Source: a virus
Taxonomy: Duplodnaviria; Heunggongvirae; Uroviricota; Caudoviricetes
Strand: one strand, 5' to 3'
IMG/VR virus record: IMGVR_UViG_2740892235_000008
DNA length: 9,382 bases
In this document: piece after piece, positions 891 through 9,382 of the stretch
How the letters are laid out: each line of letters opens with the position of its first letter
How positions within the stretch are numbered: the first letter of the stretch is position 1
Program-made: the position numbers and the translations under genes
The notes under the pieces: model-generated
Told to the model about the DNA's origin: nothing
Database searches by the model: none
Seen by the model: the letters and a program-made list of their open reading frames with translations, nothing else

Positions 891-900
891 NNNNNNNNNN
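891..900. other. assembly gap (10 N)
   Basis: Run of n characters; flanking sequence repeats 1524-1594. Confidence 0.95.
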
Positions 901-1801: not shown

Positions 1802-2124
1802 ACTTTCAGCCCCCTCTCATGTAACCAGTGGGCTGCACGCAGCCTGGCGTTTTCCTCACCAGCAAGCAGTGCGCGGATAATCCCGGCCACCTCGCTGTCG
1901 TCGTCCTTCACCGCGGTATGAAGCGTGATGCCCCGGGCCACGCCACGCTTTATCGTGATGACGCCTTTTTTCTCCAGTGCGCGAAGATGCTCCACCGCTG
2001 CATTCACTGAACGGTATCCCAGCATGGTAGCCACCTCCTGATTGGTTGGCGGGAAGCCACGTTCTTTCTGGTAAGAAATCAGCATATCCAGCACCTGCTG
2101 CTGGCATTGAGTTAACGTCGTCAT
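1798..2124 (-). CDS. LexA N-terminal DNA-binding-domain homolog (winged helix), no S24 peptidase domain, about 108 aa
   Basis: Translation from ATG 2122-2124: MTTLTQCQQQVLDMLISYQKERGFPPTNQEVATMLGYRSVNAAVEHLRALEKKGVITIKRGVARGITL..., which aligns closely to the remembered LexA DBD (…[65 protein letters not shown]). ATG overlaps the upstream stop (TAATG). The ORF-track start at 2157 is an unsupported upstream extension. Confidence 0.75.
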   Translation of the reverse strand: MTTLTQCQQQVLDMLISYQKERGFPPTNQEVATMLGYRSVNAAVEHLRALEKKGVITIKRGVARGITLHTAVKDDDSEVAGIIRALLAGEENARLRAAHWLHERGLKV

Positions 2125-2612
2125 TAAGCCCCCACGTAATTCCCTGACAGATACCACTCTTCACCCGATACAGCGCGCTTGCTGCTTTTCCGTAAACACC
2201 GCTCACGACGCGCAAGAAAATTGTTTCGCTCTTGCTGGGAGTGGCTTTCACGGAATGCCGCCATCCACACCGTTGCAGCACGACGGTATAAGCCCCTGGA
2301 CTCCAGTTCTTCCGCCTGGCGGGTCAGGCACAAAATCACCCGGGGATCGTTAGTGCCGACATAGAAATTGCGCACAGGTCTGGATTCACGAACTGGTTGC
2401 GGTTCCGGCTCCTGCGGTATCTCAGTCAGCCGCGGGAAATGTCTGCGTGTATCCCCTTCACAACGGTGAGCCACACGCCCACTCTGACGTAACTTGCTTG
2501 CTGACTGCAGAACGCGCTGTCGTGAGTAACCTGCAAAAGCATCCGCAATGTCTCCGGAAGTACACCCCGGATGGGCTTCAATGAATTTCTGAACGTCATT
2601 CAAAAGACTCAT
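2124..2612 (-). CDS. PerC/ANR-family-like regulator with an additional N-terminal domain, about 162 aa
   Basis: ATG 2610-2612 preceded by AGGGGG with about 5 nt spacing (GTG at 2616-2618 is the alternative). C-terminal LESRGLYRRAATVWMAAF...RRERCL matches the remembered PerC/Pch signature (GLWRRAA..W...RR..CL). Stop overlaps the next ATG. Confidence 0.5.
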   Translation of the reverse strand: MSLLNDVQKFIEAHPGCTSGDIADAFAGYSRQRVLQSASKLRQSGRVAHRCEGDTRRHFPRLTEIPQEPEPQPVRESRPVRNFYVGTNDPRVILCLTRQAEELESRGLYRRAATVWMAAFRESHSQQERNNFLARRERCLRKSSKRAVSGEEWYLSGNYVGA

Positions 2613-2614
2613 GA

Positions 2615-3794
2615 TCACCCCCTGAATCCTGCCGGGATCTGGCTGTAGTCCACATTGTCGTAACTGGCTTTGAAGTACGGGTCTTCGCGTTTTTCTGTGT
2701 ACGTGCTGACGGACGGCGATAAGCGCAGGGAAAGCTCATCCCATTTTTCCCGCAGCTTCGACGGGCTGAGCACGTTNNNNNNNNNNATTTGAAGTACGGG
2801 TCTTCGCGTTTTTCGGTGTACGTGCTGACGGACGGCGATAAGCGCAGGGAAAGCTCATCCCATTTTTCCCGCAGCTTCGACGGGCTGAGCACGTTACGGC
2901 ACCAGAACGGATCGCGGCTGACGCGGCTGTACATCTCGCAGATTTGTTTATGAGTACGACCATCCTGCACACACATCAGGCGAATTTCGTTTGCCCAGGC
3001 TGTCCAGTTCGGTTCTTTGGGACGAACCACCTCGCCGTCACATTCGGCAGCCTGCTCGTACAGGGCGATGATTTTTTTCCAGAACCACTGTGCGCAGGTC
3101 AAATCATCCTGCGTCCCCCACTGGCGTTTTTTAGGGCTGAATACAACCGCATCAGGATGGCGAGTTAAAAAATCCTGTTCAGCCGTCTGCGTGTCCGGTT
3201 GCGAAGAGTCCGGACGAGAAGGTTTTTTATCTGACGGATCATGTTTTGATTTTACTGACGGATCCCCGCCAGATTCTGACGGGTGAAAACCCGCTTTTTT
3301 GCCAGATTTCGACGCATCAAATTTTGACGGGTCAGATTTTGATGCGTCAGATTTTGACGGGTCAGAATCTGACAGTTGAGAAAATGCCGCTGCCTGAAGC
3401 TTCGCAACGTTAAGCTGATAAACATTCGACGCATTGCGGTTACCCTGGCGACGCGCCTTACGCGTTAACCAGCCTTCTGCTTCCAGCCGTGCGATAGCCG
3501 TTCTGACGGTACTCATCCCCGCGCCAATCTGGCGTGCAATGGTTTCAATCGATGGCCAGCACACACCTTCGTCATTACTGAAATCAGCCAGGCGGGCCAT
3601 AATTGCCACGCTGGATAATTTCATGCCTGANNNNNNNNNNAGCCAATCTGACGGGCAATGGTTTCAATTGATGGCCAGCACACACCTTCGTCATTACTGA
3701 AATCAGCCAGGCGGGCCATAATTGCCACGCTGGATAATTTCATGCCTGACGCTGCGCAACCATCCCATACATAGCCGGTTAATTTAGTGCTCAT
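2615..3794 (-). CDS. phage replication initiator, O-like (N-terminal wHTH, Ser/Asp/Lys-rich repeat linker, C-terminal domain); spans two scaffold joins with duplicated flanks
   Basis: ATG 3792-3794 with GAGG Shine-Dalgarno 7 nt upstream; translation MSTKLTGYVWDGCAASGMKLSSVAIMARLADFSNDEGVCWPSIETIARQIG... In-frame through segment 2787-3630. True stop TGA at 2615-2617 found by hand translation (…DPYFKASYDNVDYSQIPAGFRG). The ORF-track frame after the 2777-2786 gap is an artefact. Real gene length is shorter than the coordinate span because 2672-2776 / 2789-2896 and 3520-3630 / 3641-3751 are duplicated overlaps. Confidence 0.6.
2777..2786. other. assembly gap (10 N)
   Basis: Run of n characters; about 105 bp either side are near-identical direct repeats. 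Confidence 0.95.
3224..3377. repeat. iteron-like tandem array (15-bp period; consensus CAGATTTTGACGNGT; 5 contiguous copies at 3303-3377 plus degenerate copies at 3224-3284); candidate replication origin inside the initiator gene
   Basis: Direct reading: cagatttcgacgcat / caaattttgacgggt / cagattttgatgcgt / cagattttgacgggt / cagaatctgacagtt, plus cagattctgacgggt at 3270-3284 and two CTGACGGATC-containing units at 3224-3265. They encode the SDxSK pentapeptide repeats of the linker. Lambda ori iterons lie inside O in the same way (established knowledge). Confidence 0.5.
3631..3640. other. assembly gap (10 N)
   Basis: Run of n characters; 3520-3630 and 3641-3751 are near-identical with 3 SNPs. 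Confidence 0.95.
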
Positions 3795-3803
3795 GACCGA
3801 CCT

Positions 3804-4142
3804 CTATTTCCCTGAATTTACGACGAAACTGTTCGAGCGGGCTGAAGCACTCATGCTCATAGCCTTCGCGGAGGTAGATAACACGTTGTGTTTCCGGCTC
3901 CCAACGAATGACTCTGACGGGCACTCCGTAGTGATCTTTGAACCAGCGGTTAACTTGTCGCAAAGGACTGTCTCCTTCTGCCGGTTGAAATCACCCACAG
4001 CCCACTCTGCAAAGCTGTGGGTTACAATTTCCCTGTCACCTGGTACATTTACTGCATAGCAATACTCCACCTTCGCTTTTCCACCCGGTACAGGAAGCGC
4101 AATCAGTTGCGAGCGACGGTAGTGTGTTGTTAAACTGTTCAT
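3804..4142 (-). CDS. hypothetical protein (112 aa) between cII-like and replication genes
   Basis: ORF-track ORF; ATG 4140-4142 overlaps the upstream stop as ATGA; stop is 9 nt before the replication gene ATG. Same strand as the whole operon. No recognisable family. Confidence 0.4.
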
Positions 4143-4690
4143 GCGTTAGTTTCTCCACAGTCACGACACGCCACGGCGCCCGGAGCTGCACACTCGCGGG
4201 CGTCACTACTTTCTGAAACGCAAAAGATTTTGTAGACCAGTGCTGCATGCTCCTGCAGCTTCGAAATTGAGAGGTACAGCTCATCGTTAATTGCTGTCTT
4301 CTCATGCGGTTCCACTACACCGTCTTCAATTGCTGAACGAATCTGTTTTGAATAACTGCCGATCTGTTCAATGACCTCCAGCAGGCGTTGGTTGATATCG
4401 GCGTTGTCCACATCCTCGACATCAGGAAGAGACACAAAGACGCCATTTGCAGACTGCGCCACAGCGTCAGCAATGAAGTGAGTTCCACCAGCACGTTGCA
4501 AAATCATTGCCCATCCCAGCGGGAAAATCTGATCGCCATCGGCACGAAGGCGGTTAAATAATGCGTTCTCTGTTACATCCAGCCAGTCAGCAGCTTCAGC
4601 GTACCCCCCCGGCAACGCTGCGATAGTTTTTCTGACAGCTTTCACGTACCACTCAGGCTGTTTTTCTACTTTCCAGTGATGCTTACCCAC
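4139..4690 (-). CDS. cII-like early regulator (HTH-containing, 183 aa)
   Basis: GTG start 4688-4690 preceded by a perfect AGGAGG with 6 nt spacing. Sits immediately downstream of the cro-like gene. Remote cII-like HTH pattern in …[19 protein letters not shown]. Function inferred from position and weak pattern. Confidence 0.55.
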
Positions 4691-4943
4691 GGTTCACCTC
4701 CTGTTCCTGTGGTTTAAACCCATTCTGGTTTTGGCTAGATTGAAAACGTGCCGGATAAAGAATCTGCATTTCGCTGACTTCACCCTTAAAAAAATTGGCT
4801 AAACGTTCTGCAAGCTCGATAGATGGAATCTGCTCCAGCCTCTCAATACGACTCAACGTCGCTGGATTGACTTGAACACCCGCAGCAACATGCTGCAAAG
4901 TGAAACCATGCGCCTTACGCACATTTCGTAATGGTGATTGCAT
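4683..4943 (-). CDS. cro: Cro-like XRE-family HTH repressor (86 aa), immunity module 1
   Basis: ATG 4941-4943 with GGAGGG Shine-Dalgarno; translation MQSPLRNVRKAHGFTLQHVAAGVQVNPATLSRIERLEQIPSIELAERLANFF is a typical HTH_3 fold. Divergent from the cI-like gene across a 97-bp operator region. Confidence 0.7.
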   Translation of the reverse strand: MQSPLRNVRKAHGFTLQHVAAGVQVNPATLSRIERLEQIPSIELAERLANFFKGEVSEMQILYPARFQSSQNQNGFKPQEQEVNRG

Positions 4944-5040
4944 ATGCCCTCCAAATATTGCGCGTTATGCATGTTATTTCACGCAATTATTTTGCGCAAG
5001 TTGATTTGCTTATCACGCAATAAAGAAATGTAATAAACGC
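4944..5040. promoter_or_regulatory. divergent promoter/operator region (OR/PR/PRM-like) of immunity module 1
   Basis: Between divergent cro-like and cI-like starts. Contains dyad TTGCTTATCACGCAA (5006-5020), a weaker TTGCGCGTTATGCAT (4958-4972) and the palindrome CGCAATTATTTTGCG (4982-4996). Possible PR toward cro: -35 TTGCGC, -10 TAACAT read on the minus strand. Confidence 0.55.
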
Positions 5041-5733
5041 ATGAACATAGGAAACCGAGTCAGACAACTTCGCCAAGCGAAGAACATGAAAATCGCCGAT
5101 CTCGCTGAAGCGATAGGAGTAGATGCGGCGAACATCTCGCGCTTAGAAACGGGTAAGCAAAAACAATTTACCGAACAAACACTGAGTAATATTGCCAGGA
5201 GCTTAGGTGTTGATATTGCTGATCTCTTTACCTCTGCCCACAAAAGTAATACTGTATATAAAAACAGTAATAATGAGGATGTTGCGCAGGTGAAGGATGT
5301 GTTCCGTATTGAAATGCTGGATATCAGTGCCAGTGCGGGAAATGGCCTTATCCAGGGCGGTGATGTCATTGATGTGATTCATGCCATCGAATACAGAACT
5401 GATAATGCTGTATCAATGTTCGGCGGACGACCAGCCAATCACATCAAAGTTATCAACGTTCGTGGGGACAGTATGTGTCCAACCATTGAGCCCGGAGATC
5501 TCATCTTCGTTGATGTCAGCATCAATCAGTTTGATGGTGATGGTATATATGTCTTTGGTTTTGATGACAAAATATACGTTAAAAGACTTCAAATGATTCC
5601 TGACAAACTGCTGGTGATTTCTGATAACCAGATTTACCGTGAATGGGGAATTACTAGCGAAAACGAACACCGATTCATGGTCTTTGGAAAGGTCTTAATC
5701 AGTCAGTCGCAAACCCTTAAGAGACATAATTAA
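5041..5733 (+). CDS. cI: CI-like phage repressor (N-terminal XRE HTH, C-terminal S24/LexA-type autopeptidase), 230 aa
   Basis: Translation has HTH (VRQLRQAKNMKIADLAEAIGVDAANISRLETGK), a candidate Ala-Gly cleavage site (ASAGNG) and the S24 catalytic motifs GDSM … KRL. Stop TAA 5731-5733. Confidence 0.9.
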   Translation: MNIGNRVRQLRQAKNMKIADLAEAIGVDAANISRLETGKQKQFTEQTLSNIARSLGVDIADLFTSAHKSNTVYKNSNNEDVAQVKDVFRIEMLDISASAGNGLIQGGDVIDVIHAIEYRTDNAVSMFGGRPANHIKVINVRGDSMCPTIEPGDLIFVDVSINQFDGDGIYVFGFDDKIYVKRLQMIPDKLLVISDNQIYREWGITSENEHRFMVFGKVLISQSQTLKRHN

Positions 5734-6689: not shown

Positions 6690-6803
6690 AAAGGATACCA
6701 CCGAGCCTGAAGTGGTGAAAAGACAGGCACATAACAGCTAAGTATTTTCAACCAGAGAGAATCCTTAGCGTTGTGGTGAATGCGGCTCAGCGCACGCGGG
6801 TTA
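6690..6803. repeat. conserved right-flank element, copy A (6725-6803 identical to 8930-9008; 6690-6724 similar with SNPs to 8896-8929)
   Basis: Direct comparison of the two stretches; copy A is truncated by the gap at 6804. Confidence 0.6.
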
Positions 6804-6813
6804 NNNNNNNNNN
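6804..6813. other. assembly gap (10 N)
   Basis: Run of n characters. Confidence 0.95.
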
Positions 6814-7128
6814 TTCCAGCAGGCGTTGGTTGATATCGGCGTTGTCCACATCCTCGACGTCAGGAAGAGACACAAAGACGCCATTTGCAGACTGCGCCAC
6901 TGCGTCAGCAATGAAGTGAGTTCCACCAGCACGTTGCAAAATCATTGCCCATCCCAGCGGGAAAATCTGATCGCCATCGGCACGAAGGCGGTTAAATAAT
7001 GCGTTCTCTGTTACATCCAGCCAGTCAGCTGCTTCAGCGTAACCACCCGGCAACTTTGCGATAGTTTTTCTGACAGCTTTCACGTACCACTCAGGCTGTT
7101 TTTCTACTTTCCAGTGATGCTTACCCAC
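6814..7128 (-). CDS. cII-like regulator, second copy, N-terminal part (3' end cut by gap)
   Basis: GTG 7126-7128 with GAGG Shine-Dalgarno 6 nt upstream; translation nearly identical to 4139-4690 (one A to K change seen). 6814-7128 repeats 4376-4690. Confidence 0.55.
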
Positions 7129-8901: not shown

Positions 8902-9008
8902 GTCCACCTCGCCTGATGTGGCTAAAAGCAGGCACATAACAGCTAAGTATTTTCAACCAGAGAGAATCCTTAGCGTTGTGGTGAATGCGGCTCAGCGCAC
9001 GCGGGTTA
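8896..9008. repeat. conserved right-flank element, copy B
   Basis: 8930-9008 identical to 6725-6803; preceding about 34 bp similar with SNPs. Confidence 0.6.
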
Positions 9009-9120: not shown

Positions 9121-9166
9121 CGGTACCAGTTTGTACCCTTGCTTCCGGCTGGTACCGTCCTTTTTT
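9121..9166 (+). terminator. large hairpin plus T-tract (CGGTACCAG-N19-CTGGTACCG then TCCTTTTTT); candidate plus-strand terminator
   Basis: 9-bp perfect inverted repeat followed by a T6 run. An allelic copy at 9258-9304 keeps the stem and carries a CTCTTTTT tract. Confidence 0.5.
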
Positions 9167-9247
9167 GCAAAACAGAGAAGAGCATCACCGGACGACGGGC
9201 TCATAACCCAATCCATCCGGGCGGCTGCCACCGCAGGTGTTCTTCTC

Positions 9248-9257
9248 NNNNNNNNNN
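9248..9257. other. assembly gap (10 N)
   Basis: Run of n characters; 9119-9247 and 9258-9382 are near-identical. Confidence 0.95.
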
Positions 9258-9382
9258 TGTACCAGTTTGTACCCTTGCTTCCGGCTGGTACCGCTCTTTT
9301 TACAAAACAGAGAAGAGCATCACCGGACGACGGGCTCATAACCCAATCCATCCGGGCGGCTGCCACCGCAGGTGTTCTTCTC

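Follow-up and report, generated by a model that had tools for sequence, protein, structure and literature searches.

The initiator gene and its repeats

The subject of this report is a compact array of short repeats that lies inside the replication initiator gene of a lambdoid prophage, together with the A+T-rich element that follows it. The DNA analysed is a stretch of 9,382 nucleotides (nt) from the virus record IMGVR_UViG_2740892235_000008, referred to in its entirety as the window, and it represents the early region of a prophage resembling Shigella phage SfII, with 97-98% identity to that phage over the alignable parts. The initiator gene is O-like and occupies positions 2615-3794 of the minus strand. 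Two scaffold joins fall inside it, runs of N at 2777-2786 and 3631-3640 that each separate duplicates of about 108 nt with 97-99% identity (2669-2776 and 2788-2895; 3523-3630 and 3642-3749), and both lie outside the repeats. When these joins are collapsed the gene encodes a protein of 313 residues, equal in length to SfII gp41 and about 99% identical to it, which matches PHROG 391 ("replication initiation O-like") with an E-value of 6e-135.

The N-terminal winged-helix domain of this protein (residues 1 to ~98; 3382-3794 on the minus strand, a span that includes the duplicated stretch at the 3631-3640 join) contains a Pfam HTH_36 match at residues 23-70 (E = 4e-11), with weaker winged-helix matches of the GntR, MarR, DnaD_N and RepC types. 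No similarity to the N-terminal domain of lambda O was detected (hhalign probability 0.04), and the family PF04492 (Phage_rep_O), which lambda O matches with E = 6e-36, is not matched by the window protein. The C-terminal domain (2845-3162, minus strand), on the other hand, is of the type with which lambda O binds P. BLASTP aligns residues 70-277 of the initiator with residues 78-270 of lambda O (31% identity over 216 columns, E = 6e-26), and this similarity sits nearly wholly in the C-terminal domain (residues ~172-277 here, ~176-270 in lambda O). Judged by these matches, the initiator is a mosaic of a non-lambda DNA-binding domain, a repeat-encoded middle part and a lambda-O-type C-terminal domain. 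A sequence search of the PDB with the initiator gave only weak matches to winged helices of the MarR type (E ~ 0.008), and a single-sequence AlphaFold2 model of the 313-residue protein had an unusable mean predicted local distance difference test (pLDDT) score of 42, with no helix predicted over residues 99-161. In the chromosome of E. coli ECDA1023 (locus L063, match at 1501-1737), an open reading frame (ORF) of 455 residues starts with the first 79 residues of the initiator (99% identical); the rest of this fusion we take, by eye, to be a terminase large subunit, as in YmfN of e14, and the array has been deleted from it.

The repeats themselves were recognized by Tandem Repeats Finder at 3303-3366, either as 4.3 copies of a 15-bp period (81% matches) or as 2.1 copies of a 30-bp period (88%), and a repeat search extended the array to 3303-3377, i.e. 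five contiguous 15-mers, with a sixth related copy at 3267-3289. We describe the array as five head-to-tail 15-bp units on the minus strand (3302-3377), and 84 homologues keep such units in a 15-nt phase. Along the gene strand the unit reads CCGTCAAAATCTGAC, of which the conserved portion, TCAGA-A-TCTGA, is nearly palindromic over 11 bp; the cores lie at 3302-3312 (a degenerate copy, with two mismatches), 3317-3327, 3332-3342, 3347-3357 and 3362-3372, and are separated by variable spacers of 4 bp. The peptide encoded by the array consists of S-D/K-S-D-x pentapeptides. With at most one mismatch, the core TCARAWTCTGA occurs in the window only at positions 3269, 3317, 3332, 3347 and 3362. Because the core is nearly palindromic, these five sites give ten matches on the two strands, compared with 0.75 expected, and none of 200 shuffled sequences reached ten. 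In the complete 41-kb SfII genome the core motif is confined to the initiator gene, and no tandem repeat of that genome other than the array scores 60 or more; nor was a second array or comparable cluster of the motif found elsewhere in it.

Beyond the array in the direction of the gene lies an isolated sixth core, TCAGAATCTGG on the gene strand (3269-3279, minus strand). It is the most conserved single site of the family and is retained even in L088, a homologue with only 52% identity. The spacer between the array and this core (3280-3301, minus strand; GGCAAAAAAGCGGGTTTTCAC on the gene strand) contains an A6 tract and a T4 tract, and the pattern of an A run followed by TTTT is maintained in the homologues. 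A terminator-like 5-bp hairpin with a T run on the plus strand (3280-3293) is weak and is not conserved in the homologues. The repeat region folds strongly as single-stranded DNA (z = -5.15), but this was treated as a by-product of the dyad-symmetric units, and a function as RNA or as a cruciform was set aside.

An initial annotation of this DNA had reported five contiguous 15-bp repeats with degenerate copies upstream. Both are real, the degenerate copies being the isolated core at 3269-3279 and two 24-nt repeats described below, although in a gene on the minus strand these lie downstream of the array and not upstream. The same annotation had rightly put the repeats in the linker-coding part of the gene: the cores, at gene nt 304-411, lie between HTH_36 and the lambda-O-like domain.

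Conservation of the array in homologous genes

The homologues compared come from 8 phage and 80 genome loci that encode the N-terminal domain (52-100% identity), among which there are 84 non-redundant full-length genes; the genera, spread across Enterobacterales, include Escherichia, Shigella, Citrobacter, Klebsiella, Enterobacter, Kluyvera, Yersinia, Proteus, Providencia, Rahnella, Ewingella, Pantoea and Tatumella, along with others. Cores of the form YCARAWTCTGR are present in every one of the 84 genes, in 2-10 copies (median 5), and no homologous initiator without the repeats, the observation initially named as one that would speak against an origin, was encountered. The arrays start at gene nt 298-358, and only 3 cores fall outside nt 250-700 when all the genes are pooled. 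Successive cores are exactly 15 nt apart in 263 of 375 gaps, and the isolated last core follows the last array unit at 48 nt (59/84) or 33 nt (16/84). The 70 nt past the array are at least 90% conserved per nucleotide, third positions included (62 anchored sequences). More elaborate arrangements are also seen: Tatumella saanichensis has a 60-nt unit of four different 15-mers that is repeated at least four times, L088 (a metagenome-assembled genome) has 33-nt repeats between two cores, and a Providencia locus has up to 9-10 cores.

The gene is very widespread in E. coli, where 1944 of 5426 complete genomes hold at least 80% of a 627-nt initiator stretch that includes the array. Its RefSeq label is only "helix-turn-helix domain-containing protein".

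Constraint on the DNA rather than on the peptide

Given a simple S-K-S-D-x repeat whose copy number ranges from 2 to 10 among the homologues, and a model, albeit one of low confidence, that has no helix over the corresponding residues, one could suppose that the array is nothing but a low-complexity Ser/Asp/Lys linker, growing and shrinking by replication slippage and having no function in cis as DNA. The codons used in the repeats speak otherwise. To avoid circularity, the units for this analysis were selected solely by the peptide that they encode, S[KE]S[DEG] (n = 230). The first Ser of the unit is encoded by TCA in 213 of the 230 cases and the second Ser (the third residue) by TCT in 195; AGY codons, which account for 45% of the Ser codons elsewhere in the same genes, appear just once at each of these two positions. 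The K/E codon of the unit ends in A in 226/230, and AAA accounts for 526 of the 542 Lys codons of the linker, compared with 815 of 1272 elsewhere. The synonymous positions of the core are therefore nearly invariant, while the fifth codon of the unit, in the spacer, varies freely and non-synonymously (P, A, T, G or R), as does the last base of the fourth codon. Given this free variation of the fifth codon and the spacers, the conservation cannot be put down to the segment having been transferred as a whole in recent times. The N-terminal domain provides the yardstick: in each class of homologues with less than 95% amino-acid identity, only 37-39% of its four-fold degenerate sites agree with the window, that is, these sites are saturated.

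Two homologues are particularly instructive. In L006 (Stx2_KH16-043, at gene nt 468) and in L079 (at gene nt 450), translation passes through one copy of the motif in a shifted frame; in place of ...PSESD... the product has ...LTLQNLT... or ...FTRQNLT..., and a few codons later the usual frame is restored. As read from these two sequences, the DNA motif has been preserved at the expense of the peptide. Since the synonymous sites of the repeats are nearly frozen where those of the N-terminal domain are saturated, and since the motif survives in another reading frame, we infer that the constraint on the repeats acts at the level of the DNA and not of the peptide; the box downstream of the array, conserved at more than 90% per nucleotide even at third positions, is a further difficulty for a mere linker. 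On these grounds a purely peptide-level explanation was rejected, and we regard it as exceedingly improbable.

GATC-headed A+T-rich repeats adjoining the array

Immediately past the isolated core is a candidate DNA-unwinding element (3217-3264, minus strand), composed of two 24-nt direct repeats, GATCCGTCAGTAAAATCAAAACAT and GATCCGTCAGATAAAAAACCTTCT, and having the lowest duplex stability of the gene. On the gene strand each repeat begins with GATCCGTCAG (3264 to 3241 and 3240 to 3217) and is thus headed by GATC. The least stable 40-mer of the initiator gene is 3217-3256, with a calculated free energy (dG) of -47.0 against a window mean of -54.8 (standard deviation 4.3). The moderately A+T-rich stretch that had originally been proposed for unwinding, 3222-3260, coincides with this minimum, and the G+C fraction at 3220-3259 is 0.325; the instability is nevertheless modest, ranking in the top 0.1% within the gene but only in the top 4% of the window.

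The placement of this element is highly regular. In 72 of 84 genes the least stable 40-mer begins 0-60 nt past the last core, as it does in lambda. Counted from the start of the last core, the first GATC is at exactly 15 nt in 75/84 genes, and the second follows it at a distance of 24 nt in 67 of 72; those of the window, at 3261-3264 and 3237-3240, are 15 and 39 nt past the last iteron. A Pectobacterium locus has the 24-nt GATC unit in three copies. The choice of Asp codons in Asp-Pro dipeptides follows the same division. Inside the array GAC is used 105 times and GAT 6 times, so that GATC is avoided, whereas after the last core GAT is used 158 times and GAC 36 times, so that GATC is created; elsewhere the counts are 463 GAT and 409 GAC. 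Over the window as a whole GATC is not enriched (30 found, 34 expected), and it is only by their placement that the two GATCs of the element stand out. No exact DnaA box was found within or next to 3200-3400.

In the 13-mers of E. coli oriC and in oriR of P1, the A+T-rich unwinding units begin with GATC or contain it. The GATC-headed A+T-rich repeats resemble these; they differ in that the units here are 24 nt long and that no exact DnaA box is in or beside the element. The fixed pair of GATC sites, along with a neighbouring dam-type gene, suggests that firing could be controlled by Dam/SeqA methylation.

The array travels with the N-terminal domain

Phages that share only part of this initiator reveal how its parts have been reassorted. 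The O-like gene of mEp460_4F5 matches the window (94.7%) only at 2896-3233, in the C-terminal domain, and has a different N-terminal domain upstream. Its array is different as well: 5.4 copies of a 23-24-nt unit, GGTCAAAATGAC..., at gene nt 315-440, followed by 12-nt A-rich repeats, the repeat region overall extending over gene nt 315-491. The reverse exchange is found in Citrobacter phage phiNP, which shares 3197-3507 (N-terminal domain, array and GATC box) at 86% and has another C-terminal domain. The mosaic joints, at about 3233 for mEp460 and about 3197 for phiNP, are just upstream of the C-terminal domain in the gene. A third type of array, with a 22-24-nt unit GGTGGGGCAGGAGCTGCCC at gene nt 292-355, belongs to the O gene of phage 24B, whose product has an N-terminal domain with 43% identity. 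At least three types of C-terminal domain have been joined to the module of N-terminal domain plus array. By these comparisons, the array type and the GATC box are co-inherited with the N-terminal domain and not with the C-terminal domain. Such linkage of repeats to the N-terminal domain is, for lambdoid phages, the classic argument that the repeats are iterons.

The O-like genes of mEp460 and of the Shiga toxin (Stx) phage 24B are alike in having a tandem array that follows the winged-helix domain directly and lies at gene nt ~290-440, and mEp460 has the C-terminal domain in common with the window at ~95% DNA identity; they differ in their repeat units, which are paired with other N-terminal domains.

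Gene neighbourhood and assembly of the window

The early-right operon of the window is on the minus strand. The repressor gene cI (5041-5733) is on the plus strand, and cro (4683-4943) and a CII/YmfL-like gene (4139-4690) are on the minus strand. They are followed by the gene for a 112-residue protein without an assigned function (3804-4142, minus strand; PHROG 1170, no Pfam match), which is immediately upstream of the initiator gene and whose end overlaps the start of the latter. The equivalent neighbour in the plasmid collection is labelled a DUF4222 domain protein, and the 112-residue protein might have a role in replication. The gene that follows the initiator encodes a PerC-like activator (2124-2612, minus strand). 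A dam-type methylase gene lies near the initiator, one or two genes downstream, and in several relatives directly after it. No promoter or terminator above shuffle expectation was found in a scan of 2500-5100, and the window has no Rfam match.

There are seven runs of exactly 10 N in the window (891-900, 1141-1150, 1504-1513, 2777-2786, 3631-3640, 6804-6813 and 9248-9257), the two in the initiator gene included. Besides the duplicates mentioned for that gene, others of considerable length are found at 4377-4676 and 6815-7114 (98%), 1152-1451 and 1656-1955 (95%), 811-890 and 1515-1594, 603-691 and 1052-1140, 6719-6803 and 8924-9008, and 9162-9247 and 9297-9382. The window looks like a scaffold made from overlapping or variant contigs of related prophages, with coordinates that are not colinear with a real phage genome.

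The array in E. coli K-12 and the SrsR boxes

Genomes of the K-12 type retain the part of the window at 2896-3442, with the array and the GATC box, in prophage CPS-53 (locus L091, 1339-2065). The CPS-53 initiator gene, yfdO, is a pseudogene that has lost the N-terminal DNA-binding domain, and the array falls in the spacer between yfdO and yfdP; its intergenic appearance in K-12 is due solely to this truncation of yfdO. This spacer has already attracted attention for another reason. Kobayashi et al. 2022 (PMC9181523) found it to be the top genomic-SELEX (systematic evolution of ligands by exponential enrichment) peak of the LysR-type regulator SrsR (YgfI), with an intensity of 1206 as against 150-288 at the other nine sites. 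They reported a DNase I footprint of 66 bp containing four 11-bp boxes (TCAaATTTTGa, TCAGATTTTGa, TCAGATTTTGa and TCAGAgTcTGa) and a rise of yfdONMLK mRNA caused by SrsR; the footprint required 10-40 µM SrsR, and at the other SrsR sites the match to the box is poor, 6-9 of 11 positions (PMC9181523). Neither iterons nor an origin are mentioned for these boxes (PMC9181523).

Apart from a single base, the four boxes reported in K-12 coincide with the window cores at 3317-3372. The array is consequently a platform for protein binding in vitro, as the SrsR footprint demonstrates, and that footprint independently defines the same 11-bp core that was derived here from conservation. The array is thus the same DNA in the two settings; in K-12 it has been described as a set of operators for a host LysR-type activator, and the initiator there is truncated.

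One may then ask whether the array is primarily a cluster of SrsR operators for the neighbouring prophage genes, and not an origin at all. The highest SELEX peak, the footprint and the changes in yfdONMLK mRNA (PMC9181523) would all be accounted for, and the sequence in K-12 is the same as in the window. In intact phages, however, the array is located about 300 nt inside the initiator ORF and not upstream of a promoter, and its type goes with the phage N-terminal domain. The architecture is also kept in a chromosome of Proteus mirabilis, and no SrsR homologue was found outside E. coli (E <= 1e-20, within the same record collection, which is a limited sample). Finally, the high protein concentration needed for a footprint and the poor fit of the box at other sites mean that the large peak may reflect avidity for four tandem near-palindromes. 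SrsR binding is not taken here as the conserved function of the array, and the operator explanation seems to us very unlikely.

It is perhaps worth considering a combination of the two ideas, in which the top SrsR target would be a fossil phage origin, prophage replication would be gated by SrsR together with Dam/SeqA, and DnaB would be reached by a route that has not been described. SrsR, a stationary-phase factor, would then occupy the iterons where the initiator is intact, competing or cooperating with it, and Dam/SeqA would act on the two fixed GATC sites of the candidate unwinding element. This remains speculative, and as a whole we find it rather doubtful.

Comparison with the lambda origin

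The paradigm for an origin of this kind is ori-lambda, whose experimental basis is given in PMC7466680. It comprises four iterons and an A+T-rich tract inside gene O of lambda, and the Stx phages 933W and P27 have a version with six iterons. The likenesses to the present array are numerous. In both, the repeats are situated between the DNA-binding N-terminal domain and the C-terminal domain of the phage's own initiator gene, at gene nt 349-433 in lambda and with cores at nt 304-411 here; they show dyad symmetry and include A-tracts. Following the direction of transcription, the duplex is weakest once the last repeat has been passed: the 40-mer of lowest stability begins at nt 437 in lambda (dG -43.0) and, in the initiator gene of the window, some 20 nt from where the last core starts. 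The two initiators also have homologous C-terminal domains, and the site is in the pR operon after cro and cII. The lambda-like arrangement originally proposed agrees with the sequence at every point that could be checked at that level, namely the homology of the initiator, the position of the repeats, the unstable segment, the conservation, the constraint at synonymous sites and across a change of frame, and the co-inheritance with the N-terminal domain.

An origin embedded in the initiator gene of a lambdoid phage is known, and what we describe is not a new kind of system. It does have features of its own: an 11-bp core at a strict spacing of 15 bp, where lambda has 18-bp iterons with start-to-start spacings of 20, 24 and 23 bp; an additional isolated sixth site 48 bp away; an unwinding element made of two GATC-headed 24-bp repeats that is less A+T-rich than that of lambda; and no P gene after the initiator. 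Its N-terminal domain, moreover, belongs to the HTH_36 family and not to Phage_rep_O. Neither is the array matched to a plasmid-type iteron origin, in which a Rep protein is accompanied by DnaA boxes and by 17-22-bp iterons about two helical turns apart, a spacing that differs from the 15 bp found here.

A probable replication origin

Taking the sequence evidence together, we conclude that the array is probably the iteron part of the replication origin of lambdoid prophages of the SfII/SfV/CPS-53 type, and that the GATC-headed A+T-rich 24-bp repeats are a candidate for its unwinding half. In such an origin, dimers of the N-terminal winged-helix domain would bind the 11-bp dyad cores (YCAGA-A-TCTGR), and the five closely packed sites at 15-bp spacing, along with the isolated site 48 bp off, could assemble a nucleoprotein complex like the O-some. 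Torsional stress from this complex would melt the adjacent, least stable segment at 3217-3264, through which transcription from pR would pass, as in lambda. The C-domain of lambda O binds P. The C-terminal domain of the initiator, which is of that type, would then bring in host DnaB, and because no gene for P, DnaC or a helicase is present, it would presumably do so through a host loader or an unrecognized phage protein. The conserved GATC pair would place the firing of the origin under the control of Dam/SeqA.

Several considerations weigh against this conclusion. The A+T-rich element is weaker than that of lambda (dG -47 versus -43; G+C content 30-33% versus 20-23%), and the 15-bp spacing is unlike that of either lambda or plasmid iterons and offers scarcely enough space for a dimer on each site. 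No gene for P, DnaC, a helicase or a primase is annotated in the whole SfII genome, which implies a putative helicase-loading route without P that has gone unrecognized. The only demonstrated ligand of the array DNA is the host LysR-type regulator SrsR. In the searchable literature, which did not cover the SfV genome paper (Allison et al. 2002), no experiment was found that asks, for this family, whether the initiator binds the repeats or whether the DNA acts as an origin; a replication module, though no origin, is noted in the SfIV genome paper, and a text search of the literature for the motif returned only unrelated primers. Lastly, the matches in the plasmid collection are prophages in mis-filed chromosomes or megaplasmids, an e14-like circle and a 16-kb lambdoid fragment, and in none of them is the initiator module seen to serve as the sole replicon. 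The circle (OR902851.1) is a circular record of 15.2 kb, an excised e14-like element that was deposited as a plasmid.

The sites might also be bound by the initiator and yet serve some other purpose in cis, for instance as an autoregulatory site or roadblock for the pR transcript, in copy control by handcuffing or in phage exclusion, with initiation taking place elsewhere. Plasmid iterons do double as control elements. Ectopic copies of ori-lambda are reported to inhibit lambda (PMC3349717, PMC4488673). The absence of a second array or comparable cluster from the rest of the SfII genome tells against initiation at another such site, and the fixed adjacency of the array to the least stable duplex is what an origin requires. 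We consider this alternative unlikely, and a replication origin continues to be the preferred interpretation.

If the array is indeed an origin, its recognition annotates the replication origin of the SfII/SfV/CPS-53-type prophages, including the serotype-converting phages of Shigella, and the frequency of the initiator gene among complete E. coli genomes gives the finding wider relevance. It would also offer a simpler account of a published result, the "SrsR boxes" of K-12 being the iterons of a decayed prophage origin. Since other O-like genes have different arrays at the same place, a scan of the DNA that directly follows the winged-helix domain may prove generally useful for locating origins in initiator genes of this sort. 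Finally, the SfII-like arrangement, with its 15-bp packing, its GATC-headed repeats and its lack of P, would constitute a natural variant of the lambda design in which the recruitment of the helicase by an O-type C-terminal domain without P could be studied.

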